Origin: Gammaproteobacteria bacterium
GTDB lineage: Bacteria; Pseudomonadota; Gammaproteobacteria; SZUA-152
Direction: 5' to 3'
NCBI GenBank assembly: GCA_015487095.1
Contig: WFQM01000164.1
Span: forward strand, 1 to 46,241
DNA length: 46,241 bases
Part shown: positions 17,773 to 46,241 of the stretch, piece by piece
How the letters are laid out: every line of letters begins with the position of its first letter
Numbering within the stretch: position 1 is the stretch's first letter
Notes under the pieces: model-generated
Seen by the model: only the letters and a program-made list of their open reading frames with translations
The model's database searches: none
Told to the model about the DNA's origin: nothing
Position numbers and translations under genes: made by a program

Positions 17773-17776
17773 TACC

Positions 17777-20145: not shown

Positions 20146-20214
20146 TCACCAGCTATCGGCCAGTGTTGCACAATAATTTTCCTTTTCAATTTTTTCATCG
20201 GTTGCATAAAACAA

Positions 20215-20805: not shown

Positions 20806-20917
20806 AAACTCATAATTTATCGGGCGTTAGCCCTCAAGCTTTATAGGAGAAACGAAGTAACCCACCCAGCATACGGTTTTATAAAGTAATTTTTATCCGC
20901 TTATCTGTGACAATATT

Positions 20918-20945
20918 TTGACATCCCGAAAATATGGTGTATAAC
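20918..20945 (+). promoter_or_regulatory. Candidate sigma70 promoter of fleQ
   Basis: TTGACA-16 nt-TATAAC, 68 nt upstream of the fleQ ATG. Confidence 0.5.
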
Positions 20946-21012
20946 TTAGTGCGTTGCAGGGGAAACAGCCGCACTTGGTTTGTGCAAATGGCCTTAATTC
21001 TGGGAGGAAAAA

Positions 21013-22446: not shown

Positions 22447-22502
22447 CTCATTAAACAGGCTATCACCACTAACTGATTGATAATAAAGAAGGTCATCATT
22501 TA

Positions 22503-22516
22503 GGCACGCTACTTGC
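22503..22516 (+). promoter_or_regulatory. Candidate sigma54 promoter of fleS-fleR
   Basis: aGGCACGctacTTGCt matches TGGCACG-N4-TTGC with correct GG/GC spacing. Lies 54 nt upstream of the fleS ATG. Confidence 0.65.
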
Positions 22517-22569
22517 TACTTCTGTGTTGTATCACACAGACTGTTTGAAACAGAAAGGCAAGGCGTGCC

Positions 22570-25112: not shown

Positions 25113-25150
25113 CCCGGGTTTGTTGATCGATGTAACGAAACAGGAGAATC

Positions 25151-25474
25151 ATGATGAATGAAATCGATACCAGCCAACTGATTACCCAAATGCGTGCCAT
25201 GGCTGCTGCCGCACAGGGAAACACAGCAACACCACAAAATAATATAACAGGAAGTAATTTTGGGGACTTGTTAAGCAACAGTATTAACAAGGTCAATGAA
25301 GTCCAAAAAACATCTGGGAAACTGACTAATGCTTTTCTTTCCGGTGATTCCAGTGTCAGCCTTGCCGAAGTGATGATAGCCAAACAAAAATCCGGTATCG
25401 CTTTTGAAGCCGCACTTCAGGTCCGGAAAAAGTTATTAAGTGCTTATAAGGAAATAATGTCAATGCAGGTTTGA
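25151..25474 (+). CDS. fliE: Flagellar hook-basal body protein FliE
   Basis: 107 aa with FGDLL..SINKVNEVQ....L...F and a C-terminal AFEAALQVRKKLLSAYKEIMSMQV. AGGAG SD. Confidence 0.9.
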   Translation: MMNEIDTSQLITQMRAMAAAAQGNTATPQNNITGSNFGDLLSNSINKVNEVQKTSGKLTNAFLSGDSSVSLAEVMIAKQKSGIAFEAALQVRKKLLSAYKEIMSMQV

Positions 25475-25523
25475 TATTGTTCATCAGTCAAAAAGTAATC
25501 GGCAATAATAAAGAAGGTTCCCT

Positions 25524-27161
25524 ATGGCATTAGTCAATACTGAAGAAGTTTCTGCCGGGCTTGCAGGCATGAGTGGTCTTAATGCCTTTCGCCAAATAGG
25601 CCTGATGCTAGGGCTGGCTGCCAGCGTAGCTATCGGTGTGACTGTGGTGTTGTGGTCATGGACGCCTAATTACGGTGTGTTATATGGCGCACTGGAAGAA
25701 CAGGATGTCAGCACTGTGTTGGATGCGTTACGGCAGGGGGGTATTGAAGCAAAGCTTGATGAAGCCACAGGAGCTGTATTGGTACCCAAAAGTAATATTC
25801 ATGATGCGCGCATCAGGCTGGCTTCCATGGGATTGCCAAAGGGTGTGAGTGCCGGTTTTGATGCATTGGAAGATAAAAGCAGTTTTGGTGTTTCACAGTT
25901 TATGGAAAAGGCACGTTACCAGCGTGCGTTGGAGATTGAGCTGGCGAGAACGATTTCCAGTCTGAGTAACGTTAAAAATGCACGAGTGCATTTGGCTGTG
26001 CCACGGCAATCGGTTTTTGTGCGTAACCGAAAAAAATCCAGTGCCTCGGTGGTGATTGATTTATTCCCCGGTCGTAATCTGGAAAGTGGACAGGTATCTG
26101 CGATCACACATATGGTGTCATCCAGTATTCCTGAACTGGATGTCAGCAATGTTACCGTGGTGGATCAGCGAGGAAAGTTATTGACCTCGGGAAGCACCAA
26201 TTTACAAATTGCGCGGACGGGAGCCCAGTTTGAGTACATCAATAAATTTGAGCAGGCTTATATTGATCGTATCGAACGTTTGCTGGAGCCCATTCTGGGG
26301 TCTGAATCTGTACGAGCACAAGTGACGGCAGATATTGATTTTACCGCAAGCGAGCAAACACAGGAAAGTTTCAACCCGGATGCCCCGGCTTTACGCAGTG
26401 ACCAAACCACGCTGGAAGAATCTTCCGGTGCCATCAATGGTGGCGTACCCGGTGCGCTGACAAACCAACCTCCCGGTGCCGGAGCCATTCAGGAAAATAT
26501 CGGTGTCGACGTTGCCAAGGCGACACCCAGTAGCAGGCATCGCCGGGAAATACGTAACTATGAGCTGGATAAAACCATTAGCCATACACGATTTTCTATG
26601 GGGCGTCTGAAAAGATTGTCAGTGGCTGTGGTGGTGGACGATAAAATAACGGTAGTCGATGGTAATAGCACACGTCTGCCACGTACCCCGGAAGAGCTGT
26701 CCCGCTTGAGTAATTTGATCAAAGAAGCAGTGGGGTTCAATGTGCAACGCGGTGACACGGTGAATGTGATGAATTCATCATTCACGGTGCCTGAAGCACC
26801 AGAGCCTTTACCTGAAGTACCTATCTGGGAACAGGGGTGGGCGCTGGATATTGGCAAAAAAATCCTGGGTGCTTTATTGGTAATCATCGTTTTGTTTGGA
26901 ATATTAAAACCGATTATGCGCTCACTGGCGACACAGTCACGCGAAATGGTGCCGGTTAACAGCGCGACAGGATCAGCAGCCGTCAATAGCGTCGAGGGTA
27001 TGGCGGAGGACACCGTGACTTTAGGTGCAGCACAAGATATCCCGGCCATTCCTGCCCCCGGAAGTTACGAGCAAAATATGATTACCGCGAACAAGGCCGT
27101 TGAACAGGACCCAAAGTTGGTGGCGCAGGTCGTGAAGAACTGGGTGGCCAATGATGGCTGA
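25524..27161 (+). CDS. fliF: Flagellar MS-ring protein FliF
   Basis: 545 aa. Two TM segments flank the periplasmic ring domain (RYQRALEIELARTI, LAVPRQSVFV). Confidence 0.95.
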   Translation: MALVNTEEVSAGLAGMSGLNAFRQIGLMLGLAASVAIGVTVVLWSWTPNYGVLYGALEEQDVSTVLDALRQGGIEAKLDEATGAVLVPKSNIHDARIRLASMGLPKGVSAGFDALEDKSSFGVSQFMEKARYQRALEIELARTISSLSNVKNARVHLAVPRQSVFVRNRKKSSASVVIDLFPGRNLESGQVSAITHMVSSSIPELDVSNVTVVDQRGKLLTSGSTNLQIARTGAQFEYINKFEQAYIDRIERLLEPILGSESVRAQVTADIDFTASEQTQESFNPDAPALRSDQTTLEESSGAINGGVPGALTNQPPGAGAIQENIGVDVAKATPSSRHRREIRNYELDKTISHTRFSMGRLKRLSVAVVVDDKITVVDGNSTRLPRTPEELSRLSNLIKEAVGFNVQRGDTVNVMNSSFTVPEAPEPLPEVPIWEQGWALDIGKKILGALLVIIVLFGILKPIMRSLATQSREMVPVNSATGSAAVNSVEGMAEDTVTLGAAQDIPAIPAPGSYEQNMITANKAVEQDPKLVAQVVKNWVANDG

Positions 27162-28161
27162 AAACAGCGAAGTAAAAGGTATTGACCGTGCTGCGATTTT
27201 TTTAATGAGCCTTGGGGAAGTGGCAGCTTCGGAAGTGCTGAAGCACATGGACCCCAAAGAAGTGCAATCAGTAGGTGCCGCCATGGCGCAATTGAATAAT
27301 GTTTCGCGTGGCCAGGTGACTTCTGTGTTAAAAGATTTTTGTGCCACGGTGCAGGAAGAGACAGGGCTGGGTCTGGGTACCGATGATTATGTGCGCAGTG
27401 TACTAAAAAAGGCACTGGGTGATGATAAAGCCGAAGGCCTGATTGATCGTATTTTACAAGGCGGAAATACCAAGGGACTTGAAACACTCAAGTGGATGGA
27501 CTCACGTGCAGTGGCTGAAATTATTCGTCTCGAACATCCACAGATTATTGCCATTGTTTTGTCGTATCTGGACCCGGATCAATCGGCTGAAGTATTGGCC
27601 GTATTCCCTGATCGTGTGCGTGTTGATGTGTTAATGCGCATTTCCACGTTGGACGGTATTCAGCCTGCCGCATTAAATGAACTCAATGACATTATGGAAA
27701 AACAATTCACCGGTAAAAATAATGTGAAGTCTTCCAGTGTGGGTGGCTTGAAATCGGCTGCGAATATTCTTAATTTTATTGACAGTTCAATGGAAGGCGA
27801 GATTATGGACAGCGTCAAGGAAATTGATGCAGACCTGGGTCAGAGTATTCAGGATCTCATGTTTGTTTTTGATAACCTGAATGCTGTTGATGATCGAGAC
27901 ATTCAAACAATTCTCCGGGAGATTTCCTCCGAGTCACTGGTGTTGGCGTTGAAGGGTGCGGATGACGAACTGAAAGAGAAAATTCTGAGAAACATGTCCA
28001 AGCGCGCTGCCGAAATGCTGCGTGATGACCTTGAAGCGAAAGGGCCGGTGCGTCTGAGTGAAGTGGAAGGAGCCCAAAAAGAAATTCTTTCAGTAGCTCG
28101 CAGACTAGCTGATGCTGGCGATATTTCTTTAGGCGGTTCCGGTGGTGAAGAGTATGTATAG
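27151..28161 (+). CDS. fliG: Flagellar motor switch protein FliG
   Basis: EHPQIIAIVLSYL, MFVFDNL and RAAEMLRDDLE motifs. Overlaps the fliF end by 11 nt. Confidence 0.95.
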   Translation: MMAENSEVKGIDRAAIFLMSLGEVAASEVLKHMDPKEVQSVGAAMAQLNNVSRGQVTSVLKDFCATVQEETGLGLGTDDYVRSVLKKALGDDKAEGLIDRILQGGNTKGLETLKWMDSRAVAEIIRLEHPQIIAIVLSYLDPDQSAEVLAVFPDRVRVDVLMRISTLDGIQPAALNELNDIMEKQFTGKNNVKSSSVGGLKSAANILNFIDSSMEGEIMDSVKEIDADLGQSIQDLMFVFDNLNAVDDRDIQTILREISSESLVLALKGADDELKEKILRNMSKRAAEMLRDDLEAKGPVRLSEVEGAQKEILSVARRLADAGDISLGGSGGEEYV

Positions 28162-28832
28162 TGATGGTTAAAATCATTTGTAAACAATCAACGGATCAAT
28201 ATCAACGCTGGGATTTGCCCATGGTGGAGGATGTCTCCGGGGCTGTGGCAAATGCGAAGGATGACAAAGCACCAGGCTTGATGACAGCAGAGCAAATTGA
28301 AAGAATTCAAAACCAGGCATACAAAGAAGCTTATGAGGCCGGTTTTTCAAAGGGCCGTGAAGAAGGAATGGCAGCAGGAAAAGATGAAATTACACGTAAT
28401 GCTCAATTGCTTGATGATTTATTGCAATCATTATCGAAACCCTTTGAAAAACTGGATGAAGATATTACGCAGCAACTGGTAAGTTTATCAGTGGCTATTG
28501 CCCGGCAACTGGTTCGCCGGGAATTAAAAATTGATGCAGCGCAGATTGTGGGCGTCGTGCAAGAGGCCATTGCGGTGTTGCCAGTGGGGTCTCGTAATGT
28601 AAAAGTCTGTTTACACCCGGATGATGTACGAGTGATGCACGACACAAAGGTGGAAATGGAAATAGAGCGTAACTGGGAGTTGGTGGGTGACCCCGGTTTA
28701 TCCCGAGGTGATTGCCGGATTCTAACGGAAACATCGCGCATTGACGCGACACTTGAAAAGCGCCTGGCAGCCATTGCATCCCGGCTTTTGGGTGGTGAGC
28801 GCGAGACAGACAAAGCACTGCCCTCTGAATGA
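28161..28832 (+). CDS. fliH: Flagellar export apparatus protein FliH
   Basis: Acidic/helical N-half ([22 protein letters not shown]) and a C-terminal FliH domain. GTG at 28161 or ATG at 28164. Located between fliG and fliI. Confidence 0.85.
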
Positions 28833-30310
28833 CCGACGAGTCAAAAAATATGCAGAATCATTCATCATTTCAGTCCAGAGCAGAAAGTCTTCGTGCTAGT
28901 CATCGCAAATGGCAACAATCACTTATTGAAGCACAGGAAGGTATCGCAGCACCTCAACTCATTGTGGAAGGGCATCTTACCCGCATGGTGGGTTTGACGC
29001 TGGAAGCGGTTGGTTGTCATGCCCCAGTGGGCTCACGGTGTTTGGTGGAAGGGCCGGATGGAAAAGATATTGAAGCCGAAGTAGTGGGCTTTTCTGGCGA
29101 AAAACTATTTTTAATGCCTACAGAACGCATGCTTGGCATTGTTCCCAACGCCCGGGTGATACCGAGCAAAAAACCTTACGATGTGGCGGTGGGTAAAGAA
29201 TTACTGGGGCGTGTGCTGGATGGTGCCGGTCATCCGCTGGATGGCAAAGGCCCGTTGCAAACATCGGAGCGTGTATCCATTACCAGCCGGGTAATCAATC
29301 CCATGGCACGACACCCGATCAGTGAAAAGCTGGACGTGGGTATTCGTGCCATCAATGCGTTATTGAGCGTAGGTCGCGGTCAACGCATGGGATTGTTTGC
29401 GGGCAGCGGAGTGGGCAAAAGCGTTTTGCTGGGTATGATGACAAAATACACGGATGCCGATGTGATTGTGGTTGGGCTTATCGGTGAGCGTGGCCGTGAA
29501 GTCAAGGAATTTATTGACAACATACTGGGTGAAGAAGGTATGGCACGCGCTGTTGTGGTTGCATCGCCCGCCGATGACGTACCGGTCATGCGTTTGCACG
29601 GCGCATCACTGGCGACCCGTATTGCTGAATACTTCCGTGATCAAGGATTGAATGTTCTGTTATTAATGGATTCATTAACCCGCTATGCCCAGGCGCAACG
29701 TGAAGTGGCACTGGCTGTGGGAGAGCCGCCTGCAACAAAAGGTTACCCACCTTCAGTGTTTGCAAAAATCCCGCAACTGGTTGAACGTGCTGGAAATGGT
29801 GACACTGGTGGTGGTTCTATTACCGCGTTTTATACGGTATTGACAGAAGGTGATGATCAGCAAGACCCTATTGCGGATGCAGCCCGGGCGATTCTCGATG
29901 GACATATTGTACTGTCTCGCGAGCTGGCGGAGGCAGGACATTACCCGGCGATTGATGTGGAAGCTTCGATCAGTCGTGCAATGACGGAAATTACCAGTGC
30001 GGAACATCAGGCAGCTATTCGCCAGTTCAAGCAATGGTACTCCTTATATCGTCAACATCGAGACCTGATTAGTGTGGGGGCTTATCAACGAGGTACGGAT
30101 GCAAAGGTGGATGAAGCCGTGACAATGTATCCACAATTAACAGAGTTTTTACAGCAGAGTATCACACAGTCTGTTTCACTTGCCGACAGTATAGACAGAT
30201 TGGAAACACTGCAAAGTATTGAGGTCATGTCGCCCGCCCATGATGCAAATTTGCAGGCACCAATGGTACAACAAACATTGCCGGATAAGAGTAATTCCTA
30301 TGCAAAATAG
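28829..30310 (+). CDS. fliI: Flagellum-specific ATPase FliI
   Basis: Walker A GSGVGKS and Walker [12 protein letters not shown], in an F1-beta-like core. It has ~35-aa N- and C-terminal extensions relative to what I expect for FliI. ATGA overlap with fliH. Confidence 0.95.
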
Positions 30311-31751: not shown

Positions 31752-33125
31752 ATGAATGTTAAAAAAATAGTCATGTCATTTATTGTGCCGATAACCGGCC
31801 TGACTTTGTTAAGTGAAAGCTCAATTGCAAGAAATTATCATTATGACCAATTGCCTCCTCCATCTATCGATAGCAATTTTTATGACAATGGCAACCCAAC
31901 GGAAGCTAAAGTTGCATTGGGTAAATTTCTTTTTTTTGATAAAATCCTCAGTGGTAACCAAAATACTGCGTGTTCAACATGCCATCATGGTCTGACTGAT
32001 ACAGGTGATGGTCTGTCTTTGCCGGTCGGTGAGGGCGCGCGTGGTATAGGCGTGACTCGTGATACGGGTACCGGGGCTGATGCGATTCATGAACGTGTTC
32101 CACGTAATGCGCCACCACTATTTACGTTAGGCGCAATTGAAATTGATACACTGTTTCATGATGGGCGTGTCGAGATCGATGCCACACAACCCAGCGGTTT
32201 TAGTACCCCTGCAGGTGATGATTTACCTCTGATTCTTGAGAATGTGCTGGCAGCACAGGCTATGTTCCCGGTGACATCCGCAACGGAAATGGCGGGTCAG
32301 CCGGGGGAAAACCCGATTGCTGATGCTGTAGCTGCAGGAAATCTTGCCGGTGTTGGCGGAGTCTGGCCACAACTTGCTGATCGCTTACGAAACATACCGG
32401 AATATGTTTCAATGTTTAACGAGGCCTTTGGTGTTACAGCTGATCAAATCACATATGCACATGCGGCCAATGCAATATCAGCATTTGAGCGAGTTGCCTG
32501 GCGTGCTGACAACAGTCCCTTTGATCGTTTTCTCCGGGGCAATAAAAAAGCCATGAGTAAATCAGCAAGGAAAGGAATGAGGCTGTTTTATGGTAAAGCC
32601 GGTTGTTCCGGTTGCCATAGTGGTACATATCTGACCGATATGCAGTTTCACGCGATAGGGATGCCGCAGATTGGTCAGGGGAAAGGGCATGGGGAAGATG
32701 GTTATGAAGATATGGGGCGTGCCTCAGTAACCGGTGATGAGACTCAACGGTATCAATTCCGCACACCTCCTTTACGCAATGTCGCTCTGACCGGACCTTG
32801 GGGTCATTCCGGTGCTTTTGATACATTGGAAGGCATTGTGCGTCATCATCTTGACCCGGAAACATCGCTGGATAATTATGATTGCAGTACAGAGCCCCGG
32901 TTACCTTCGCGAGCAGACCTCGATATGCATGATTGTTTTGTTATGAATGATCCCGCATTGGTAATGAATATCAAGGATGCGAATGAGCTTGAAAAAGTAC
33001 ATCTTAATGAGAAGAAAATTGCTTACCTGATGGATTTTTTACATGCGCTAACAGATCCAGACAGCGTCGATATTAGAAACGATGTACCAAGAAGAGTGCC
33101 AAGCGGTTTGTCTCTTGTTGATTAA
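31752..33125 (+). CDS. Di-haem cytochrome c peroxidase-family protein (second, divergent paralogue)
   Basis: Signal peptide, CSTCHH and CSGCHS haem sites, and FRTPPLRNVALTGPWGHSGAFDTLEGIV. GAGGG SD 8 nt upstream. Confidence 0.9.
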   Translation: MNVKKIVMSFIVPITGLTLLSESSIARNYHYDQLPPPSIDSNFYDNGNPTEAKVALGKFLFFDKILSGNQNTACSTCHHGLTDTGDGLSLPVGEGARGIGVTRDTGTGADAIHERVPRNAPPLFTLGAIEIDTLFHDGRVEIDATQPSGFSTPAGDDLPLILENVLAAQAMFPVTSATEMAGQPGENPIADAVAAGNLAGVGGVWPQLADRLRNIPEYVSMFNEAFGVTADQITYAHAANAISAFERVAWRADNSPFDRFLRGNKKAMSKSARKGMRLFYGKAGCSGCHSGTYLTDMQFHAIGMPQIGQGKGHGEDGYEDMGRASVTGDETQRYQFRTPPLRNVALTGPWGHSGAFDTLEGIVRHHLDPETSLDNYDCSTEPRLPSRADLDMHDCFVMNDPALVMNIKDANELEKVHLNEKKIAYLMDFLHALTDPDSVDIRNDVPRRVPSGLSLVD

Positions 33126-37255: not shown

Positions 37256-38239
37256 TTAACCGCCAATTTTTGACATGAACCGAACCACCTGTTGTGGCCT
37301 GTCTGTAAAGTTGTGGCGCTCCGGTTTCAGCGCAAGTGCATTATTCAGCAACGTTTTTAATTCAATGTCACTCAAACCCTGACGCAAAGTTTCCCGTAGT
37401 TCGATCATATGTTCATGTCCCAGGCACAAAAAAAGTGTGCCAGAGGCTGTCAGGCGTACACGGTTACACGTTTCGCAAAAATGTTGGGATATGGGGGTAA
37501 TAAACCCAATGCGAAGGTTACGGCCTTTCACCTGAACATAACGTGCAGGACCGCCTCCCGGCATAACACCGGGAATGAATTCAAAACTTTTTTGTAGTTG
37601 TTTTTCAACATCATGAAGATCAAGGTAATGTTCACTGCCTTTGCGACCGGCTGCACTGATTGGCATGGTTTCAATAAAACGCAGGGTGAAGTCGTGTTCG
37701 AGACAAAAATTCACCATGTCATTAAATTCATCGTCATTAATGCCTTTCATGGCCACCATGTTGATTTTGAGCGGTGCAAACCCTGCGGCTTTGGCTGCCA
37801 TTAATCCATCCAGGGTGTCTGACAGTTCGCCACCATTGATATTACGAAATCGTTCGGGTTTCAGTGTGTCCAGGCTGACATTGATACGGGTGATGCCGGC
37901 CTGTTTTAATCCTCTTGCATGGTGTGCCAACAGGCTGGCATTGGTGCTGAGTGACAGGTCTTCCAGCCCTGGCAGGCGGGAAAGGCGGGTGGACAATTCA
38001 CACAGGTCTTTGCGCACAAGCGGTTCTCCCCCGGTCAGTCGTACCCGGCGAACGCCCATTTCGGTGAATGCGCTGACCACTCGCACTATTTCATCCTGCG
38101 TGAGTTGTTGGGAAGGCGGATTGAAATCGTTGTAGCCTTTGGGTAAACAATAAAAACAACGCAGATTGCATTTATCGGTCACTGATAAACGCAGGTATTC
38201 GATTTTTCTGCCAAAAGGGTCAATCAGTTGCGGAGTCAT
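37256..38239 (-). CDS. moaA: GTP 3',8-cyclase MoaA (molybdenum cofactor biosynthesis)
   Basis: LRLSVTDKCNLRCFYCLP radical-SAM cluster, LTGGEPL, C-terminal cluster FCETCNRVRLTASGTLFLCLG, and a terminal GG. Start placed at MTPQLIDPFGRKIEYL (38239), 1 nt after the regulator's stop. Confidence 0.9.
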   Translation of the reverse strand: MTPQLIDPFGRKIEYLRLSVTDKCNLRCFYCLPKGYNDFNPPSQQLTQDEIVRVVSAFTEMGVRRVRLTGGEPLVRKDLCELSTRLSRLPGLEDLSLSTNASLLAHHARGLKQAGITRINVSLDTLKPERFRNINGGELSDTLDGLMAAKAAGFAPLKINMVAMKGINDDEFNDMVNFCLEHDFTLRFIETMPISAAGRKGSEHYLDLHDVEKQLQKSFEFIPGVMPGGGPARYVQVKGRNLRIGFITPISQHFCETCNRVRLTASGTLFLCLGHEHMIELRETLRQGLSDIELKTLLNNALALKPERHNFTDRPQQVVRFMSKIGG

Positions 38240-38240
38240 G

Positions 38241-39713
38241 TCAGTTGGCCTGGTCGGGATGTGTATCGTCTTCCTGGTCGTCATCCATGTCAGAGTGTGT
38301 TCCGTCCGGGTTGGTTAATGCAAAGTGTTTAATCATGCGGCGCAGGCGAGGTCGGGATACACCGAGAATGTCGCATGTATTGCCTTTGTGCCATTGGGTC
38401 GCTTCGAGGACACGTTGTACGTGAGCCTTTTCAATATCTTCCAGACTCCACTCACTCAGTGATTTTTGTTCACCCTGATTATCTGCCGACTCGACATCAC
38501 AAATATCACTGATGAGATCCCGGGTGATCACATTACCCGGACAAAGGGCGACAGCTTTTTCCAGGGTGTTTGCCAGCTCGCGTACATTACCTGGCCAGCT
38601 GTGGCTTTCCAGGCTGGTCATGACATCGGAGGCTATTTGGGTGACATTGCGATTCATTTGTTTATTGATGCGTGCCAGTAATGTCTGTATCAAATCGACA
38701 ATATCCTCCCGGCGTTCCCGCAATGGCGGCAGATGGATGGTTACCACACGTAACCGGTAATAGAGGTCTTCGCGGAACAGGCCTTCGCGTACCCGGTCTT
38801 CGAGGTTTACATTGGTGGCAGCAATCACCCGTGCGCTGCTTTGTTGCGGTGCTTTGGCTCCCACAGGGGTGAATTCTTTTTCCTGCAAAACCCGTAACAG
38901 TTTTGCCTGCATGGTGGGTGAGAGTTCACCTATTTCATCCAGAAAAATAGTGCCGTTATCGGCCAGGGCAAACTTGCCGGGCTGTCGGTTCACCGCTCCG
39001 GTAAAGGCTCCCTTTTCGTGACCAAACATATCGGACTCCAGCAATGTTTCTACCAATGCCGCACAGTTAATGGCGACAAAGGGGCCGTTGGCATTTTTGC
39101 CTGCCCGGTGAGTGGCATTGGCCACCAGTTCTTTGCCGGTGCCGCTTTCTCCGGTGATCAATACGGTAACCGGGCTGTCGGCTACCAGGCCGATAATTTT
39201 GAAGACTTCTTTCATGGCGCGACTGCGTGCCACCATGGTATTGGCCAGAGGTGCCAGGTCTACCTGATGCGTGTTAACGGTGGTCTGGTCACCGGGGTTC
39301 AGTACGCGTGCGGCTGCCTTGTCGAGTTCTTCAATATCAATGGGTTTGTGAATATAGTCTTCGGCACCGTGTTGCATGGCTTCAATGGTGCTGTCCATAT
39401 CATGAAAGGCGGTGATCATGATGACATGGGTTTCAGGAAAAGCTCGTTTAAATTCCGGAAGACCTTCCAGTCCGGATTTTCCCGGCATGCGAATATCGAG
39501 AATAACCAGATCGGGACATTGCTCATAAGCCGCCGCCATGCCCTGATCAACACTGTGTGCAATGCTGACATCGTAACCTTGGCTGCTTAAGTGCAGTTGT
39601 AAGGTTCTACAGCTGGCGATGTCGTCATCGACAATCAGTATGTGTTTTTTCCGGATGGGTGAAACGGTTTCCATGGTATGTAATTCACTGAGTTTTTTGA
39701 TTGCGATGTTCAT
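38241..39713 (-). CDS. Sigma54-dependent (NtrC-family) response regulator
   Basis: REC (LVILDIRMPGKSG), AAA+ (GESGTGKE, GHEKGAFTGA, GAFTGA loop) and a C-terminal HTH (GNTCDILGVSRPRLRRMIK). ATGA overlap with the kinase gene. Confidence 0.9.
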   Translation of the reverse strand: MNIAIKKLSELHTMETVSPIRKKHILIVDDDIASCRTLQLHLSSQGYDVSIAHSVDQGMAAAYEQCPDLVILDIRMPGKSGLEGLPEFKRAFPETHVIMITAFHDMDSTIEAMQHGAEDYIHKPIDIEELDKAAARVLNPGDQTTVNTHQVDLAPLANTMVARSRAMKEVFKIIGLVADSPVTVLITGESGTGKELVANATHRAGKNANGPFVAINCAALVETLLESDMFGHEKGAFTGAVNRQPGKFALADNGTIFLDEIGELSPTMQAKLLRVLQEKEFTPVGAKAPQQSSARVIAATNVNLEDRVREGLFREDLYYRLRVVTIHLPPLRERREDIVDLIQTLLARINKQMNRNVTQIASDVMTSLESHSWPGNVRELANTLEKAVALCPGNVITRDLISDICDVESADNQGEQKSLSEWSLEDIEKAHVQRVLEATQWHKGNTCDILGVSRPRLRRMIKHFALTNPDGTHSDMDDDQEDDTHPDQAN

Positions 39714-42304
39714 AACTCTACAGGTCCTATAGGTAAGATAACACGAGCACAGGCACCATTGTTTTCATCCGTGTCCAGGCTGATTTGGCCATGGTGCTGA
39801 TCCAGTATGCGCTTGACGATGGATAGACCCAGGCCGGTACCTTTGGCGCGGGTGGTGAAAAAAGGCTCGAACAATTTATCTTTTTGTGCGGGATCAATAC
39901 CATTGCCATTGTCATGAATGTCGATGCGAATAGCCGGAGTAGCATTATCCACTTCCACATGGGCGTTAATGCGAATGTTGGGAATGTGGTTAACACTATC
40001 CGCAGATTCCAGGGCATTCATGATCAGGTTGCTGAATACCTGTCGTAGCTTAGTGGCATCACCATGAATAGTTGGCAGTTGTGGTTGGTATTCGGTAATA
40101 ATTTTAGCATCGTACTTTTGTATGGTTTTTTGTGTGGTGTTGATGGCCGAATCGAGCAATTTGTTAATGTTCAACCATTCCGGGTTCAATGCATCGGGTC
40201 GTGAGAAGGCTAACAGGTCGGCGAGGATGTTTTCCATGTAGCGGACTTGATCCAGTGAAATTTGTTTCATTTCTTTGGCTTCTTCACCCCAGGATTCCTC
40301 GGCGCGTTTGCCCCAAATTTGCAAGGTCATTTTGATGGAGGAAAGCGGGTTGCGCAGGTCGTGGGCAATCATGGTGGCCATGCGTCCCATGGCTGTCAGG
40401 GTTTGGGTGCGGGCAATTTCCTGGTTTCGTTCTTCCACTTCTTTTTTCAGGAGCATGTGCTCCGTAATATCTTCCTTTATGGCTAGGAAATGTGAAATCT
40501 TACCCTGCTCATTACGAATAGGGGATATCATGGTGTCTTCCCAGTAAAGTTCCCCGTTTTTTTTGCGATTGTGAAAAACACCACGCCATTCGTTGCCTTG
40601 TTTTATTATTTCCCAAAGCTGGTGGTAGTCGATATCGCTGGTCTCTCCTGATTTCAGAATACGCGGTGTCTGACCCAGTATTTCTTTTGTACTATATCCG
40701 GTTAGCTCTGTAAAACGGGGGTTGATGTATTCAATAATACCCTGTGCATCGGTAATCATTACCGAGTTATAACTTTGCTCAACGGCGCGGGACAGTTTGC
40801 GCAATTGTTGTTCTGATTCGCGTTGTTGCGTAATATCCTGACCAATGCTGGTAAGCGTAGTGACTTCGCCAAAGCGGCCACAGGAGAGTGTGTTGGTCCA
40901 TGCGAACAAACGTGGTTCGCCGGTTTTTGCCATAATATGGCTTTCGACAGTATGCGGAGGTGCATCGCCGGTAATGATTTCTGTATAGGCGTGACGTGTG
41001 CGTTGTCTGTCTTCCGGAATGACGCAACTGTCAAACCAGTCCTGGCCGGTGATCTCTTTTTGCTGCCAGCCAGTCAGGTTGAGCAGGTAATCATTACAGA
41101 AGGTGATGCGGCCATCGGCATTGAGAGTGACTGCCGCCAGTTGCATGTTTTCCAGTGTGTCGTGGTAGCGGCGTTCAAAGTTTTTTTGTGCCTGTTCCTG
41201 TCGTCGGCGTGTTGCCGTTTGCGCAATGATTAATGATCCTGCCAATAAAAACAGTCCACCTAACATATAGGATAACAAGTGCTGGCGGAAAAATTCCTGA
41301 GATGTGGCATTGAGTGCTTTGGGTGAAACATGGGAGACAATTTTCCAGAAGCGGGGTTTGGCATTCTGTTGTCCTTCGGATACGGAGGAAATATCCCCCA
41401 TGCCGGCTTCGGCATAAAACTCCAGTACGGATACCATGGGATAGACAATAGCAAAAGTGAATAGTCCTTTTTCAGTGACAAAACTGCCTGCGTCCTGGGC
41501 TAAAATTTTTCGCCAGGCATCAGGAAAAGCCTGGGCAAAAGAATGCTCGCGTTCCAGCAGGAAAGCCCATTCATTTTCCGGGCGCGGGCCACTTAACCAG
41601 TAACCTTCATTATTAACAAGATTAAGGTGGTCGGCGATGCTGGACGCTGCCTGACGAAAACCCTGAATCAGTTTCTCACCACGAAAATTGAACATCAGCA
41701 CACCTTTTTTTTCTCCCCGGCTGTTGAACAGGGGGGTGGCAAAGCGGATGGCCGGGCGCAGGGGGTATTCAATTTCTCCTTCTTCAACATTCAGGTCAAA
41801 GGGCGACATGTAGATTCCGCCAATATCCTGGGCCAGGGCTTCCTGAAAATAATAACGATCACTTTTATTTTGTAATTCACTTTGTGCCAGGATGTTAGGG
41901 TTACCTTCGTCATAGTTGATACGGATAATTTCCATGCCATCATCGGATAAAAAGCGGATCTGGTCATAGATACCTTTTTTTTCACTGAAATAAAGGAATT
42001 CCTGGGATAGATTTAAACGCGCGTCTTCGTCTTCGGGGTTGTCCAGCAAGTCCCAAAGCTCATTGAGCTTGGCAAGAAAGGTGAGGTCGGAAATCACGGC
42101 ACGCATTTCGCTGATAAGTCCTTTTTGCGCCAGGGTGACATTTTTCTGTTCGCTGCTTTCCAGGCTGATGCGTGCCAGTTTCATCGCGGTGTAATAATGG
42201 CTTATGCCAATGCTAATCAGCAGCAGAGATAGTGGCAGAAACACCAGTAAAAAACGCCTGAGCAGCGGTGGGGGACGATCAGTATTCTGGCTCGCCGGGG
42301 TCAT
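39710..42304 (-). CDS. Membrane sensor histidine kinase (periplasmic Cache-like domain, two PAS, HisKA, HATPase)
   Basis: TM1 at aa ~15-35 and TM2 at ~345-365 flank a Cache-like sensor. Two PAS modules (ITFCNDYLLNLTGW.., IIEYINPRFTELTGY..). H-box MIAHDLRNPLSSI. N/G boxes NLIMNALES, DNGNGI, GTGLGLSI. Confidence 0.9.
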   Translation of the reverse strand: MTPASQNTDRPPPLLRRFLLVFLPLSLLLISIGISHYYTAMKLARISLESSEQKNVTLAQKGLISEMRAVISDLTFLAKLNELWDLLDNPEDEDARLNLSQEFLYFSEKKGIYDQIRFLSDDGMEIIRINYDEGNPNILAQSELQNKSDRYYFQEALAQDIGGIYMSPFDLNVEEGEIEYPLRPAIRFATPLFNSRGEKKGVLMFNFRGEKLIQGFRQAASSIADHLNLVNNEGYWLSGPRPENEWAFLLEREHSFAQAFPDAWRKILAQDAGSFVTEKGLFTFAIVYPMVSVLEFYAEAGMGDISSVSEGQQNAKPRFWKIVSHVSPKALNATSQEFFRQHLLSYMLGGLFLLAGSLIIAQTATRRRQEQAQKNFERRYHDTLENMQLAAVTLNADGRITFCNDYLLNLTGWQQKEITGQDWFDSCVIPEDRQRTRHAYTEIITGDAPPHTVESHIMAKTGEPRLFAWTNTLSCGRFGEVTTLTSIGQDITQQRESEQQLRKLSRAVEQSYNSVMITDAQGIIEYINPRFTELTGYSTKEILGQTPRILKSGETSDIDYHQLWEIIKQGNEWRGVFHNRKKNGELYWEDTMISPIRNEQGKISHFLAIKEDITEHMLLKKEVEERNQEIARTQTLTAMGRMATMIAHDLRNPLSSIKMTLQIWGKRAEESWGEEAKEMKQISLDQVRYMENILADLLAFSRPDALNPEWLNINKLLDSAINTTQKTIQKYDAKIITEYQPQLPTIHGDATKLRQVFSNLIMNALESADSVNHIPNIRINAHVEVDNATPAIRIDIHDNGNGIDPAQKDKLFEPFFTTRAKGTGLGLSIVKRILDQHHGQISLDTDENNGACARVILPIGPVEL

Positions 42305-42627
42305 CGACAGGTGTCCTTGATGTGTTTTCGGACACGGGTAAGGTAAGCCGATTCGGTTTCTTCCGGTTCGCGTGGTAATAAAAAAAGCAGTTTTGCGGCG
42401 ATAATATAGGGGCGGCGTGAATTGTCACCGGCAGGCCGTGGCGCACGTATCACCTGTTCGAGGTGAATCAGGGTACTTTGCGGGTTATCGCAATAACGGG
42501 GAAGCGAGACATGTTCGCTATAAGAACGGGCCCATGCCGAAATCAACAACATGACTAACAGTACCACTCCTGTAATGCGCAGGAAAAGCAGGTTGTCGGG
42601 TTGTTTGGCCTGTTCTGGCGTGGCCAT
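42301..42627 (-). CDS. Small membrane-anchored hypothetical protein (108 aa)
   Basis: One N-terminal TM (FLRITGVVLLVMLLISAWA) and a ~70-aa C-terminal domain with two Cys. GGAG SD. Its stop overlaps the kinase start (ATGA). Confidence 0.55.
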   Translation of the reverse strand: MATPEQAKQPDNLLFLRITGVVLLVMLLISAWARSYSEHVSLPRYCDNPQSTLIHLEQVIRAPRPAGDNSRRPYIIAAKLLFLLPREPEETESAYLTRVRKHIKDTCR

Positions 42628-42642: not shown

Positions 42643-44058
42643 TCAGTATCTTGGGGATAGCGGGTTTAGGGGTAAGTCAGGTAATTTTTCCTTTTCCGTG
42701 CCTGGCATTAATTGTCCGGCAATCTGCTGTGCTAGTTGCTGCCCTCGGGCAATACGGTCACGGACTGAAATACCTCCTCTATAGTTGGCTTCAATATGCA
42801 GGCCGGGTAGTGCCTGTAACTGTCGGCTAATGGCATGGTCCCTTGACAGATGGGCACCGTGATATAGGGGTAATGCCTGGGCATGGCGGTGGATGCGCAC
42901 CATTTCCGGGTTGCCTTTTATGTGTAACAGGGGAGTGAGGGCACGTAGTGCCTCATCAAGTAGACGGGAGTCATCCCAGTTTGCTGCTTTGGGGTGGCGC
43001 GCACCGCCAAGGTAGGTCGTCAGCAGCACTTTGCTCGCCGGAGCACGATCACAAAACAGGCTGCTCATCCACAGATTACCGGTGAAGGGCTGCTGCTCTT
43101 GCCGGGGTGTGAGAAAACCGGTGCCGTCCAGGGTGTGTTTCACTTGACTCCGGTCCAGCCCCATATGCAATACGGCCAGTGGCGCATACTGAATACTGTC
43201 CAGTAATGTTGCCAGTTCATCGTCAACAGAAGCAACAAGCCGCGCCGCTGCCGGGGCGGGTGTTGCCACAACGACGTGAGCGGCATTAAGACTGCGTTCG
43301 CCGTCAGAAGTCATGGCCGTTACTGACCAACTTTTTTGATGGGGTATTATTTCCTGCACCTGTCGATTGGAGAAAACCTGCACACCTGCGGTGCGAGCCA
43401 AAGTGTTTACCAGTGTGCTCATACCGCCCCGGAAAGAAAAACTGTCAACAGTGCAGGCGGTACGACGGCGCAGTATTTTATGAGTCAGCACACCGGCGGT
43501 GATGGAGCCGAAGCGACGCTCCAGTGCGGTTAAGCGGGGCAGGGTGGCTCCTGCGGAGGCCAGATCCGGATCTGCCGCCAGGGTACCGGCGATAAAAGGC
43601 TCCATGGCTTTTTCCAGCATTTCATTGCCCAGACGGCGGCGAATAAACTGACTGACTGTTTCGTCTTCGCTACCACCGGCGGGAATGAAAGGCTCCAGTA
43701 ACAATCGCAGTTTGCCACGCAGGCTCCACAGCGGAGAGGTCAGCATGCCGGTGATGTGCATGGGCAGTGCCTGTAATTTGCCACGGTGCAAGAGATAACG
43801 ACGTGCCTGGGGCAGGCGTTGGGTTTTCAGCGCATCCAGCCCGGCTTCGCTTACTAGCTGTGCGACTTCGGGACGGAAATTCATCAGCAATGATGCTGCC
43901 GGTTCAGTGAGATATCCTTCCTGCTGCTGACTTTTTATTTTACCGCCGGGGCGGTTATCGGCCTCCCATACCTGTACGGATACCCCTGCCCGGGCCAGCC
44001 ACCAGGCTGTGGAGAGTCCCGAGATACCACCACCGATAATGATGACATCGGTATTCAT
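42643..44058 (-). CDS. FAD-dependent protoporphyrinogen/coproporphyrinogen oxidase-like enzyme (HemY/CgoX family)
   Basis: N-terminal dinucleotide fold VIIIGGGISGLSTAWWLA..G..V.V.E...R.GGKI. Family-typical SxxGKLRLLLEP, ETVSQFIRRRLG and FSFRGGMSTL. C-terminal GLHIEANYRGGISVRDRIARG. Confidence 0.75.
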   Translation of the reverse strand: MNTDVIIIGGGISGLSTAWWLARAGVSVQVWEADNRPGGKIKSQQQEGYLTEPAASLLMNFRPEVAQLVSEAGLDALKTQRLPQARRYLLHRGKLQALPMHITGMLTSPLWSLRGKLRLLLEPFIPAGGSEDETVSQFIRRRLGNEMLEKAMEPFIAGTLAADPDLASAGATLPRLTALERRFGSITAGVLTHKILRRRTACTVDSFSFRGGMSTLVNTLARTAGVQVFSNRQVQEIIPHQKSWSVTAMTSDGERSLNAAHVVVATPAPAAARLVASVDDELATLLDSIQYAPLAVLHMGLDRSQVKHTLDGTGFLTPRQEQQPFTGNLWMSSLFCDRAPASKVLLTTYLGGARHPKAANWDDSRLLDEALRALTPLLHIKGNPEMVRIHRHAQALPLYHGAHLSRDHAISRQLQALPGLHIEANYRGGISVRDRIARGQQLAQQIAGQLMPGTEKEKLPDLPLNPLSPRY

Positions 44059-44071
44059 CGTTTTGGTAGCT

Positions 44072-44150
44072 GGGTGGGCATGCTTTTTTGCCCACGCGGA
44101 TGTTGGCGATATTCACAATACCCGCGTGGGCACAAAAAACGTGCCCATCC
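44072..44150. repeat. Pair of inverted REP-like hairpin units (BIME-like)
   Basis: Unit 1 GGGTGGGCATGCTTTTTTGCCCACGCGG (44072-44099) and unit 2 CCCGCGTGGGCACAAAAAACGTGCCCATCC (44121-44150) are near reverse complements. Each can fold by itself (TGGGCA../..TGCCCA). Confidence 0.7.
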
Positions 44151-44196
44151 TGCAATTGCGTCGGGTTGTATTTTTTTATTTAACATTACCTTTATC

Positions 44197-44279
44197 GTAG
44201 GTTGGGGTGAGGTACGAACCCCAACATGCTGAGGTTGAATTAACACCGCTGTTGGGGTTCGTACCTCACCCCAACCTAC
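44197..44279. repeat. Perfect 30-bp inverted repeat (second REP family)
   Basis: GTAGGTTGGGGTGAGGTACGAACCCCAACA (44197-44226) and its exact reverse complement (44250-44279) are separated by 23 nt. Each arm holds an internal GTTGGGG/CCCCAAC hairpin. Confidence 0.85.
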
Positions 44280-44283
44280 ATGT

Positions 44284-46241
44284 TTATTGTTTAACATTGT
44301 CTTTCAGTTTCTCCTTCATCTGTCCTAACAATTCCTGACCCAGCAAATCACCGGGATGCTCGCGTGCATCCACAAATTCACGAATGGTGTTGAAGCGTTT
44401 TACTGCTTCCGGGTTTTCTTTCAGTCTGGGGACTTTGTTTTTGGCGATATCAAATGCATCAAAACTGAGTTCGGTCATACCAAAACCTTTCATGCGTTGT
44501 ACCGCACGCATCATGGCGCGGTTGCGAAACCGGGTGAGGTCGCCGGAGCCGATAACTTCCAGTCCCTCGCGTCGGGCGTTAAACTCGGCCGCTTTTTTGA
44601 TACCGGCACGCACAAAATCAGGTGCGCTGGCAACACGTTTGGCGGCTTCCTGCGACCATTCCACACCGCCAGTGAAAACCTCCATGGCCTGTAATACATC
44701 CTGATCTGTCACCTGACGGGCACGACGTTTTTTGGTGACTTTTTCGGCTTCGGCCTCCAGTGCCGGCGTAACGAATAAACGGACTTCACGGGCTTTGCCT
44801 GCCAGACATTCCTTCACGGTTGCCTCGGCTTCGGCTGACCAGTCAAACTTGCGCTCCAGTTGATCTTCACTTTCCAGCCGGTCGAGCAATTTGATGTTGA
44901 CCTCAAGCCGTCCTTCGGCCCGTGCGATATCTTCGGCCACAGCCTGTACGCCTGCGGCCAAAAAAGCGGGCATGGTGGCCAGGCGCTCACGCGCCTCCTG
45001 ACTCCAGGGCAGGTTTTTACTGGCCTCATCAAAGGGTGAGTTTTCATGGCCAGGCATACCCGGTGGTCCTGCATCACCAAAACGCTTGGCGGCAAGAGCG
45101 GCCATGTGTTCGGTAGTTACCGCATGTTCGCCCAGTTCCTGCACATGGGCTTCGGCACGATTTTTCACCATCTTGCGCAGGAAGGAAGGCACACGTTGCA
45201 GGCGTTGTTCGGCCTCTGTGGTCCAGGTGATTTGGGAGGGGGTCTCTACTAATGGTTGGATCACATCTGCCCCTTGAGGCTGGTAACTGCACCAGGGGTC
45301 GGTATCCATGAGACTACCTCCCATCGCCAATGGTCGGGCACGACAGCCACCGCATAATTGCTGGTATTCGCACTGACCACATTTACCGTCAAGCTGAGGG
45401 TGTCGCAGAAGCCCGAAGGTTTTGGATTGTTCCCAGATATCCCAAAAAGCGGTTTGGCGAAGATTACCTTCACTGTCAGGAATATAGGGGCAGGCAGTAA
45501 CATCACCTTCCGGGGTGATGCGGCAATAATGAATACCTGCCAGACAGCCACCACCTTCATAACCTTCGGCCCGGGTGAGCATCGAACGGGCATCGTGCTC
45601 ATAGGCAATACGTTTGAAATGCGGTGCACAACGGGCGCGGATTAACAGTTCCTGATACTGGCTTTGCGCCTCCACCAGTTGATTCAATACCCGTTCGTAA
45701 GTAACAGGGCTGATATCCGACATGGACTCACCCCGTCCGGTGCAGATCAAAAAGAAGATGTTAAGTACCTTCGCACCACTGGCGTGAGCGAAATCAATCA
45801 TGGCGGGTATTTCACCGGCATTATTTTCAGTCACTGAAAAGTGAATCTGAAAAGGTAATTCAAAATGACGACAAGCCTCGATGCCTGCCAGGGTTTTTTC
45901 CCAGGCTCCGGTACGGCCCCGGAAACGGTCATGTTGCTCAGGGTCCAGTGAATCCACACTGATTCCCATGCCCAATGCACCCGCGAGCTTGAGGGATTGC
46001 ACCCGTTTTTCTGTGAGCATCATGCCGTTGGTGCCCACCACCATGGACAGGCCACGGCGGGTGCCGTGGTTAATCAGGCTTTCCAGGTCGGGGCGTAACA
46101 ATGGTTCGCCCCCCGTAAGCACCACCATGACCTCGGTGGTTTGTTCAGCGATTTGATCCAGTAACTGACAAACCTCTTCACGGGTTAATTCATCAGCGCT
46201 GCCATTTTGCAAAGTATCGGCATCAAGATAGCAGTGCGCAC
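44284..46241 (-). CDS. Radical-SAM/SPASM enzyme (NirJ/AhbD-like core) fused to four PCP_red-like repeats; N-terminus outside window
   Basis: In-frame codons upstream of the track's TTG read ..AHCYLDADT, the tail of a CxxxCxxC motif. Also VLTGGEPLL, and a SPASM region GGGCLAGIHYCRITPEGDVTACPYIP...CGQCEYQQLCGGCRARP...DPWC. Four W-x2-EA...P-x-F-[VL]-R...G repeats follow (nt 44515-45231), then a ~75-aa tail. Confidence 0.85.
   Translation of the reverse strand, partial: AHCYLDADTLQNGSADELTREEVCQLLDQIAEQTTEVMVVLTGGEPLLRPDLESLINHGTRRGLSMVVGTNGMMLTEKRVQSLKLAGALGMGISVDSLDPEQHDRFRGRTGAWEKTLAGIEACRHFELPFQIHFSVTENNAGEIPAMIDFAHASGAKVLNIFFLICTGRGESMSDISPVTYERVLNQLVEAQSQYQELLIRARCAPHFKRIAYEHDARSMLTRAEGYEGGGCLAGIHYCRITPEGDVTACPYIPDSEGNLRQTAFWDIWEQSKTFGLLRHPQLDGKCGQCEYQQLCGGCRARPLAMGGSLMDTDPWCSYQPQGADVIQPLVETPSQITWTTEAEQRLQRVPSFLRKMVKNRAEAHVQELGEHAVTTEHMAALAAKRFGDAGPPGMPGHENSPFDEASKNLPWSQEARERLATMPAFLAAGVQAVAEDIARAEGRLEVNIKLLDRLESEDQLERKFDWSAEAEATVKECLAGKAREVRLFVTPALEAEAEKVTKKRRARQVTDQDVLQAMEVFTGGVEWSQEAAKRVASAPDFVRAGIKKAAEFNARREGLEVIGSGDLTRFRNRAMMRAVQRMKGFGMTELSFDAFDIAKNKVPRLKENPEAVKRFNTIREFVDAREHPGDLLGQELLGQMKEKLKDNVKQ

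Follow-up and report, generated by a model that had tools for sequence, protein, structure and literature searches.

A radical-SAM/SPASM protein family with repeated PCP_red modules, related to AhbD and NirJ2, and its linkage to bd-like oxidase genes

The right-hand end of contig WFQM01000164.1 (assembly GCA_015487095.1), from a gammaproteobacterium of the SZUA-152 lineage, encodes on its minus strand a radical S-adenosylmethionine (radical-SAM) enzyme which ends in an array of PCP_red modules, a type of domain found at the C-terminus of BchB, a subunit of dark-operative protochlorophyllide oxidoreductase (DPOR). The whole stretch of 46,241 nucleotides (nt) is referred to here as the window. 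The question raised by this locus is on what substrate, and for which system, such an enzyme acts. The answer favoured here, with a little less than even confidence, is AhbD-type decarboxylation of the propionate side chains of a tetrapyrrole, supplying haem to a bd-like oxidase. A tetrapyrrole substrate is indicated by three independent features, namely the AhbD-like core, the PCP_red modules and a HemY-type neighbour, while the role is tied to the oxidase by synteny which holds in both directions across phyla; it is on these two grounds that the reading is preferred.

Frame 1 of the minus strand is open for 651 codons (44284-46239), has its stop codon at 44284-44286 and leaves the window at the right edge. 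A full-length relative from a metagenome contig (P0001, 99% identical) has 672 residues and begins with MPDNDLFLLAINLTRRCNLACAHCY; the window copy is therefore short of 21 residues and of the first two cysteines of the CxxxCxxC motif. The SAM-cluster motif of P0001 is C17-x3-C21-x2-C24, with MPDNDLFLLAINLTRRCNLAC upstream of AHCY, and only the "AHC" of the motif lies inside the window, in agreement with the initial annotation, in which the tail of the motif was seen to run off the edge. The start at 46212 given by a mechanical listing of open reading frames (ORFs) is an artefact.

Based on Pfam, all three expected domains were found above their cut-offs. Radical_SAM (PF04055) was matched with 66.8 bits against a cut-off of 29.5 (E 3.3e-18), which places the protein in the superfamily, and SPASM (PF13186) with 26.4 bits against 21.5, which places it in the SPASM subfamily. 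PCP_red (PF08369) was matched by the whole protein in three stretches with 89.8 bits against 32.5 (E 1.1e-25). The SPASM region had been placed at 45286-45552, and the Pfam boundaries (Table 1) lie close to this. An alignment of 23 relatives (alignment A1) revealed the invariant SPASM motifs C-x5-G-x4-C, C-x2-C-x5-C-x2-C and a distal cysteine, and CxxxCxxC was likewise invariant. The invariant cysteines are C225, C253, C260, C271, C308, C311, C317, C320 and C338 in P0001 numbering, and, as read from the alignment, those of the SPASM region would be enough for two auxiliary [4Fe-4S] clusters. The nearest solved proteins in the PDB, by sequence and by fold, were PqqE, SkfB, BlsE, SuiB and anSME; no AhbD structure was among the matches of these searches, and the whole-protein fold search returned generic radical-SAM cores only. 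The full-length AlphaFold2 model was of moderate quality (pLDDT 68.5, pTM 0.44). The protein is a cytoplasmic radical-SAM/SPASM enzyme of the clade of AhbD (haem b synthase) and NirJ2.

Beyond the SPASM region the protein continues for about 315 residues, with PCP_red modules of which three are significant and one is degenerate, and with a helical tail which is conserved. When the modules were scanned singly, 1, 2 and 4 were each significant in Pfam and module 3 was not. Profile comparison with hhalign related modules 1, 2 and 4 to one another at 96.5-97.5% probability (97.5% for module 2 against module 1); for module 3 against either module 1 or module 2 the probability was about 60%, with E about 9e-5. 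The second helix of module 3 is lengthened, and the W, F, E and R positions of this module do not vary across the family alignment. A strand-helix-helix-strand-helix pattern, with a helical tail after it, was predicted by AlphaFold2 for all four modules. Three copies of PCP_red are secure, and the third in order, the degenerate copy, is probably one as well. The initial annotation had proposed four copies with the third degenerate, and the single-module Pfam scans, hhalign and AlphaFold2 bear this out.

That annotation had also likened the repeats to the C-terminal domain of BchB, which is confirmed by Pfam, by sequence and by fold. Module 1 matched the sequence of 2kru, the nuclear magnetic resonance (NMR) structure of the BchB PCP_red domain, with E 8.5e-6, and aligned weakly with residues 469-516 of R. 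capsulatus BchB (E 0.032). The C-terminal half modelled alone reached a pLDDT of 80.7, and the best Foldseek match of this model was again 2kru, with a target TM-score of 0.75 and a root-mean-square deviation of 1.4 Å, but with E 0.1; the fold is shared by the modules of the array. In BchB this domain helps to close the tetrapyrrole pocket. The tail (residues 577-651) matched no Pfam family. It is among the best-conserved regions of the family in alignment A1, with motifs such as FRNxAMMRAVQRMKGFG and VPRL, and is predicted to be helical, with block-mean pLDDT values mostly of 84-93.

A peptide-binding fold like the RiPP recognition element (RRE) of ribosomally synthesised and post-translationally modified peptide (RiPP) systems was considered for PCP_red and rejected; the specific Foldseek matches were the PCP_red NMR structures 2kru and 2l09 only, and the other matches of the C-terminal model were unspecific helical ones with E above 0.1. 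This bears on the explanation that the protein is a SPASM maturase which introduces a cross-link or some other modification into a protein or peptide, either an oxidase subunit or the product of a small neighbouring ORF, and in which PCP_red would recognise the substrate as an RRE does. Most characterised SPASM enzymes do act on peptides or proteins, and PqqE, SkfB, SuiB and anSME are solved relatives. Maturation-type genes (CCP_MauG, SCO1) co-occur with the family, and many of the clusters have small unannotated ORFs nearby (108 residues here, 72-173 residues in loci L086, L092 and L094), whose products often contain a membrane helix, but these ORFs are unconserved between lineages and no conserved precursor-like ORF was found. 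No RRE-type domain was matched in Pfam, no RRE or PqqD-like fold was found by Foldseek with the C-terminal model, and the peptide-maturase models of NCBIfam scored 106-111 bits or less, against 278-290 bits for AhbD and NirJ2. A maturase would also leave the adjoining HemY-type enzyme unexplained, and we regard this explanation as improbable.

The top NCBIfam matches were NirJ2 (TIGR04055, 290 bits) and AhbD (TIGR04545, 278 bits), both spanning the 320-residue core and both below the equivalog cut-off of 500 bits. The AhbC, NirJ, PqqE and peptide-maturase models gave 140 bits or less; NirJ (TIGR04051) stood at 133.8 bits against a cut-off of 515. No HemN-family model was among the best 25 of the 67 NCBIfam matches. 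Membership of the AhbD or NirJ equivalogs was therefore rejected, since the scores lie below the curated cut-offs. Other relatives fused to PCP_red scored 277-346 bits with the AhbD and NirJ2 models, and P0160, which is of AhbD length and one of the nearest unfused relatives, scored 533 bits, above the cut-off for NirJ2 (AhbD-type). Proteins of AhbD length (about 340-370 residues, without the array) show about 34-41% identity. No nitrogenase-like (Oxidored_nitro) domain was found in the protein or in the scanned ORFs of the window, and the protein is thus not a DPOR BchB/ChlB subunit. A link to photosynthesis or DPOR was rejected on this ground, as well as on the lack of photosynthesis genes among the window ORFs scanned and the non-phototrophic lineages of the hosts. 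The kinship to the tetrapyrrole-acting NirJ/AhbD group claimed at the outset holds, with AhbD and NirJ2 nearest and every equivalog cut-off unreached. The fusion had been called unassignable to any characterised enzyme and the rest of the window free of photosynthesis genes, and both statements stand: no curated family, and no searchable open-access or bioRxiv paper, covers the fusion, and it falls inside no characterised family of known substrate.

AhbD is the coproheme decarboxylase of the siroheme-dependent and of some coproporphyrin-dependent routes. The window protein resembles it as its best-scoring family, in the same radical-SAM and SPASM layout and in the cysteines for two auxiliary clusters, and radical chemistry on propionates is probably of the same type. 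It differs in the 315-residue array and tail, which relatives of AhbD length are without, and in a gene context of a bd-like oxidase and a universal stress protein (Usp) fused to PCP_red, rather than ahbABC. An HemY-family gene adjoins the gene; neither ahbABC nor ferrochelatase was seen in the window or the neighbourhoods annotated with Pfam. NirJ offers the best analogy of context, since this SPASM enzyme acts on a tetrapyrrole and its gene accompanies that of the respiratory enzyme which uses its product, but its model gave only 134 bits against 515, and no nir genes (nirS, nirDLGHFN) were present in the window or in the inspected loci. HemN/CgdH likewise converts propionate to vinyl, on a metal-free porphyrinogen, and its product is the substrate of HemY-type enzymes, which would fit the neighbour; it belongs, however, to another radical-SAM subfamily and has no SPASM domain. 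The C-terminal domain of BchB/ChlB, the stand-alone 2kru and asr4154 (2l09) have the Pfam family and the fold in common with the modules, whereas here the modules are repeated, are carried by a radical-SAM enzyme and an Usp protein in place of a nitrogenase-like subunit, and occur in non-phototrophic chemolithotrophs.

The family is widespread and its neighbourhood conserved. More than 120 clusters at 90% identity have the full architecture and are 62-99% identical; those with names are called "radical SAM protein" only or, wrongly, PqqE. In a search of 1.84 billion cluster representatives the window family collapses to one representative. Scanning one genome per species, relatives were found in the genomes of at least 284 species; the best 80 have the same architecture and belong to Gamma- and Betaproteobacteria which oxidise sulfur or iron. 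The former include Sedimenticola, Thiodiazotropha, Thiolapillus, Thiothrix, Chromatiales and Piscirickettsiaceae, and the latter Gallionella, Ferrigenium, Nitrosomonadales, Sulfuricellaceae and Casimicrobiaceae. An extension of 289-377 residues after SPASM was present in all 85 gamma- and betaproteobacterial loci. A second tier, which the search of cluster representatives showed at 40-48% identity, has the same core followed by one to four PCP_red modules, its named members being from Nitrospinota, Deltaproteobacteria, Dehalococcoidia and Binatia. From this tier and P0160, the fusion is concluded to be old and variable in copy number, in a clade neighbouring true AhbD.

Synteny in the 85 gamma- and betaproteobacterial loci was determined by tblastn, and many of these contigs end early. 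Directly upstream, 75 of them encode a protein with Usp domains in tandem and at most four PCP_red modules. In L002 (7762-9981), and also in L005, L006, L011 and others, this protein has about 740 residues, its two Usp domains of the ATP-binding type standing ahead of four PCP_red modules; the partner of distant lineages carries none, one or two modules. Locus L001, 99% identical to the window, reaches 268 nt further upstream, where a frame ends in a PCP_red domain, so the Usp-PCP_red gene very probably lies just past the window edge. The remainder of the cluster is visible in L011 (98%) and L006 (96%). A many-helix CydA-like protein and a membrane-anchored dihaem cytochrome c are each encoded in 47 of the 85 loci, a secreted protein with an amicyanin-like C-x2-H-x2-M motif in 46 and a HEAT-repeat protein in 40. 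One such secreted protein, in L002 (6617-7357, labelled "fn3_3/CarboxypepD_reg"), has 246 residues with CDAHDFMH and upstream histidines, has homologues in L091, L093 and L094 and probably serves the oxidase cluster as an electron carrier of the blue-copper (cupredoxin) type. The genes for the copper chaperone SCO1 and for CopD in distant clusters point to copper as well.

The association extends to the distant forms with one to three modules. An Usp protein, usually with PCP_red, is encoded adjacent or close by in 8/8 independent contexts, and a CydA-like gene lies within 10 kb in 6/8, its product 33-51% identical, nearly over the full length, to that of the gammaproteobacterial gene. Lineages which keep both the Usp and the oxidase association include Nitrospinota and Dehalococcoidia. 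The distant CydA-like genes are accompanied by genes for c-type cytochromes and for a periplasmic b cytochrome of the EB_dh type; SCO1, CopD, a cupredoxin-like protein, CCP_MauG and HEAT-repeat proteins recur in several of the contexts, and several clusters have as neighbours genes for molybdoenzymes similar to arsenite oxidase or nitrate reductase. The reverse search started from 80 metagenome loci picked by the CydA-like gene alone, 16 of them with at least 8 kb downstream. Among these 16, the radical-SAM gene was present in 11 and the Usp gene in 14; in four shorter contigs the radical-SAM gene lies directly upstream of that for CydA.

In Nitrospirota, the TO_1 complex unites a bd-like oxidase with two c cytochromes and a b cytochrome in the periplasm (10.1101/2021.11.15.468770). 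The oxidase genes of the clusters, to which the radical-SAM gene is accessory, match this published set and are consistent with OR-N, a family of the bd superfamily (10.1101/2021.01.16.426971), from which we infer an oxidase of the OR-N / clade I / TO_1 type. Neither of the two papers mentions a radical-SAM or Usp accessory gene. No description of a PCP_red/AhbD fusion, or of its link to bd-like oxidases, was found in open-access papers and bioRxiv, and the association of this enzyme with such oxidase clusters appears to be undescribed in that literature.

PCP_red also occurs on separate proteins in these clusters. In L094 a PCP_red protein of 228 residues is encoded separately, and its N-terminus shares 46% identity (E 2.6e-19) with module 4 and the start of the tail; stand-alone Zn-ribbon-PCP_red proteins are encoded in L090 and L091, beside an ATPase of the ParA/NUBPL type. 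The four-module array therefore looks like a fusion of components which are separate elsewhere, and by these gene-fusion relationships the PCP_red proteins of the cluster probably act together. The pairs of ParA/NUBPL-type P-loop ATPase and small Zn-ribbon-PCP_red protein (L090, 6161-7503; L091, 14494-16007) loosely recall the ATPase of DPOR with its PCP_red-bearing partner. A conserved protein family of 220-260 residues is encoded next to both genes, radical-SAM and Usp, in five distant clusters which are independent of one another (L088, 13119-13802; L091, 10383-11159; L095, 13430-14095; L102, around 16335-16988; L106, around 9795-10424). Its members are 35-37% identical to one another (E 1e-42 to 1e-51), have a faint PNPOx-like match only and were undetected in all gamma- and betaproteobacterial loci.

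The gene directly downstream in the window encodes a HemY-type oxidase, which matched TIGR00562 with 254.9 bits against a cut-off of 97.85 and Amino_oxidase with E 2.2e-52. Its top solved relatives are all protoporphyrinogen oxidases (PPOX), from M. xanthus (2ivd, 4.5e-58), tobacco (1sez) and B. subtilis (3i6d). A HemY-like gene adjoins the radical-SAM gene in 76 of the 85 gamma- and betaproteobacterial loci, with an overlap of 14 nt in L003/L004, and also in the distant loci L093 and L098. In a similarity ranking, which is not decisive, the HemY-like protein was closer to the M. xanthus and plant PPOX than to B. subtilis CgoX.

These neighbours, and the scores given above, bear on the explanation that the protein is a housekeeping oxygen-independent haem b synthase, that is an AhbD orthologue, with the HemY-like protein as CgoX and the oxidase genes as incidental or co-regulated neighbours. 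Proteobacteria are not known to use the coproporphyrin pathway. AhbD and NirJ2 are the top matches, a HemY-type enzyme adjoins, and AhbD has been found in coproporphyrin-pathway organisms which have no other Ahb enzymes (review, PMC13564367). The equivalog scores are nevertheless below cut-off, and hemE, hemH/cpfC and ahbABC were unseen in all inspected neighbourhoods. The cross-phylum link with Usp-PCP_red and the oxidase, found also in the reverse search, is hard to reconcile with a gene of a general pathway. This explanation is judged slightly less probable still than that of a maturase.

From the domain architecture, conservation, synteny and gene-fusion relationships observed, we infer a scheme which follows the favoured AhbD-type decarboxylation and covers substrate and product, what PCP_red does and how oxygen is involved. 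The [4Fe-4S] cluster bound by CxxxCxxC would split SAM to give a 5'-deoxyadenosyl radical, which would take a hydrogen from the beta-carbon of a propionate of a coproporphyrin-type tetrapyrrole, the latter being either coproheme, the substrate of AhbD, or coproporphyrinogen III, that of HemN/CgdH. The propionates would shed CO2 and become vinyl groups, the electron leaving through the two SPASM clusters, and a HemY-type enzyme would then oxidise the porphyrinogen ring. The PCP_red modules may serve for holding the tetrapyrrole, for docking of the Usp-PCP_red partner or for the two together, and the resulting haem would be passed to the oxidase, probably at low oxygen. The partners in this scheme would be the Usp-PCP_red protein and, in this proteobacterial lineage, the HemY-type oxidase. 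Of the two candidate routes, that from coproporphyrinogen would have the radical-SAM and HemY steps consecutive and no enzyme missing, on condition of a metal-free substrate, while that from coproheme would need a coproporphyrin ferrochelatase.

A number of observations weigh against AhbD-type decarboxylation for the oxidase. No coproporphyrin ferrochelatase was found in the inspected Pfam-annotated neighbourhoods, which counts against the coproheme route, and the porphyrinogen route is better fitted by the HemY-like protein because of its leaning towards PPOX. A coproporphyrinogen III substrate would in turn duplicate HemN or HemF, which are usual in Proteobacteria. Most clusters outside Proteobacteria have no HemY-like gene nearby. 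Because the AhbD and NirJ2 scores are well below cut-off and identity to proteins of AhbD length is about 34-41%, a shift of substrate or reaction is quite possible. No member of the family has been characterised, and tetrapyrrole binding by PCP_red outside DPOR is an assumption. On the side of the oxidase, L129, L132 and L133 keep the Usp gene with no radical-SAM gene within 10 kb, and L111 and L166 are oxidase loci with neither gene. The placement of the CydA-like protein in OR-N / clade I follows from its size, its at least 12 predicted membrane helices and its gene context, not from phylogeny. An oxygen-dependent substitute for the radical-SAM enzyme was sought in L132 and none was seen, the cluster stopping after the Usp-PCP_red gene.

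A further explanation is that the product is not an ordinary haem. In this explanation the Usp-PCP_red protein, the radical-SAM-PCP_red protein and, where present, the HemY-type oxidase would make a new modified haem for the bd-like oxidase, possibly an iron tetrapyrrole which is derived from coproporphyrin, partly decarboxylated or altered in its side chains in some other way. The two-way link is tight, with one oxidase family over several phyla, and no such link with general haem genes was seen; neither the AhbD nor the NirJ2 equivalog cut-off is reached. Gamma- and Betaproteobacteria normally oxidise protoporphyrinogen by HemG or HemJ, and a HemY-type enzyme borne by the cluster hints at a porphyrinogen unsuited to these, but the HemY-like gene is missing in most distant clusters. 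The recurring accessory proteins (Zn-ribbon-PCP_red, the ParA/NUBPL-type ATPase and the faintly PNPOx-like family of roughly 220 residues) would suit such a pathway, for which the nir cluster provides a parallel, the AhbD relative NirJ building haem d1 next to nirS. Ordinary anaerobic haem genes may, however, adjoin oxidase genes, as hemN does beside those of cbb3 oxidase, so that synteny alone demands no new cofactor. The accounts of OR-N and TO_1 report no haem analysis (10.1101/2021.11.15.468770, 10.1101/2021.01.16.426971). A new haem is considered unlikely, although less so than a maturase or a housekeeping enzyme, and it is with the same reserve that the conserved set, which in places includes stand-alone PCP_red proteins, is proposed as a system for biosynthesis and delivery of an undescribed haem derivative specific to OR-N / TO_1 oxidases. 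These are presumed to reduce oxygen in nitrifiers of the Nitrospira type, in manganese oxidisers and in many Proteobacteria which oxidise sulfur or iron.

Lastly, two or three proteins of the cluster bear, between them, several modules which may bind tetrapyrroles, and this would suit a haem chaperone or insertase of little or no catalytic activity, its PCP_red modules carrying several haems to the CydA-like apoprotein. HemW, a HemN-like chaperone of radical-SAM fold which serves respiratory complexes with haem, is a precedent. Among relatives 62-99% identical, all cysteines of the radical-SAM and SPASM regions stay unchanged, as do the core motifs, and the distant forms retain them too, which argues for retained catalysis and makes a chaperone the least probable of the explanations, and a very improbable one.

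The features of the locus are collected in Table 1.

Table 1. Coordinates of the radical-SAM-PCP_red gene and of adjacent features in the window
Feature	Position	Strand	Basis or remark
Radical-SAM core, partial TIM barrel	45790..46241	-	Pfam PF04055, aa 2-150
SPASM region	45280..45546 (about)	-	PF13186, aa 232-291
PCP_red module 1, aa 337-387	45079..45231	-	Pfam singly: 54.2 bits, E 1.5e-14
PCP_red module 2, aa 410-457	44869..45012	-	Pfam singly: 29.5 bits, E 7.9e-7
Degenerate PCP_red-like module 3, aa 465-523	44671..44847	-	Pfam singly: 11.4 bits, E 0.34
PCP_red module 4, aa 526-576	44512..44664	-	Pfam singly: 31.9 bits, E 1.3e-7
Helical C-terminal tail, aa 577-651, and stop codon	44284..44511	-	Family alignment, AlphaFold2
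Intergenic spacer, two palindromic insertions	44059..44283	.	Inverted repeats
HemY-type FAD porphyrinogen oxidase, directly downstream	42643..44058	-	NCBIfam TIGR00562
108-aa ORF, one N-terminal membrane helix (predicted, aa 10-34)	42301..42627	-	No Pfam/NCBIfam match
PAS sensor histidine kinase	39710-42304	-	Pfam; syntenic in 46/85 loci
Sigma-54-dependent response regulator	38241-39713	-	Pfam; syntenic in 42/85 loci
moaA (molybdenum cofactor)	37256-38284	-	After the two-component pair

The 108-residue ORF directly follows the HemY-like gene in 48 of the 85 loci. The PAS kinase and the sigma-54-dependent regulator are likely to be the regulators of the cluster, and similar pairs adjoin the distant clusters L090 and L093. 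In the Nitrospinota locus L090 another gene of molybdenum cofactor synthesis, moaC (10931-11416), comes after the radical-SAM gene.

The spacer between the radical-SAM and HemY-type genes holds two inverted repeats, one with arms of 30 nt at 44197-44226 and 44250-44279 which are 100% complementary, the other with arms of 22 nt at 44084-44105 and 44116-44137. Each insertion is independently present or absent among contigs 96-99% identical (L001, L006, L011). Because their presence varies among near-identical strains, the palindromes behave like small mobile elements of the repetitive extragenic palindromic (REP) or miniature inverted-repeat transposable element (MITE) type; the palindrome patterns searched for had no second occurrence elsewhere in the window. 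An ORF of 80 residues (44055-44297) was rejected as a partner gene, since it spans the variable palindromes and has no Pfam or NCBIfam match.

Elsewhere in the window, far from the cluster, lie two genes of the di-haem cytochrome c peroxidase/MauG family, at 5711-6895 on the minus strand and at 31752-33125 on the plus strand. Among the distant oxidase clusters, L093 and L094 each contain a pair of CCP_MauG genes and L098 contains at least one. A flagellar region (10836-30310) encodes FliD, FleQ, a FleS/FleR-like pair, FliF, FliG, FliH and FliI, with tandem flagellin genes at 15812-16495 and 16616-17308. Just before it are genes for a DegT aminotransferase, a dehydratase and an MptE-like/tetratricopeptide repeat (TPR) protein of 837 residues, which may form a flagellin glycosylation island.

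The bd-like oxidases are thought to be the main oxygen reducers of dominant chemolithoautotrophs, among them oxidisers of nitrite, manganese, iron and sulfur, and no purified oxidase of the OR-N/TO_1 type is described in 10.1101/2021.11.15.468770 or 10.1101/2021.01.16.426971. An enzyme of the haem synthase clade which tracks these oxidases across phyla offers a handle on their maturation and a test for an unusual haem. Several hundred entries named "radical SAM protein" could receive a more informative annotation. PCP_red gains its first context outside chlorophyll biosynthesis, where it is repeated, shared by the proteins of a cluster and sometimes free-standing, which suggests a general role in the handling of tetrapyrroles or in docking. 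If the less likely reading of an undescribed haem derivative is true, PCP_red would be a general tetrapyrrole-handling module and not an appendage specific to DPOR.

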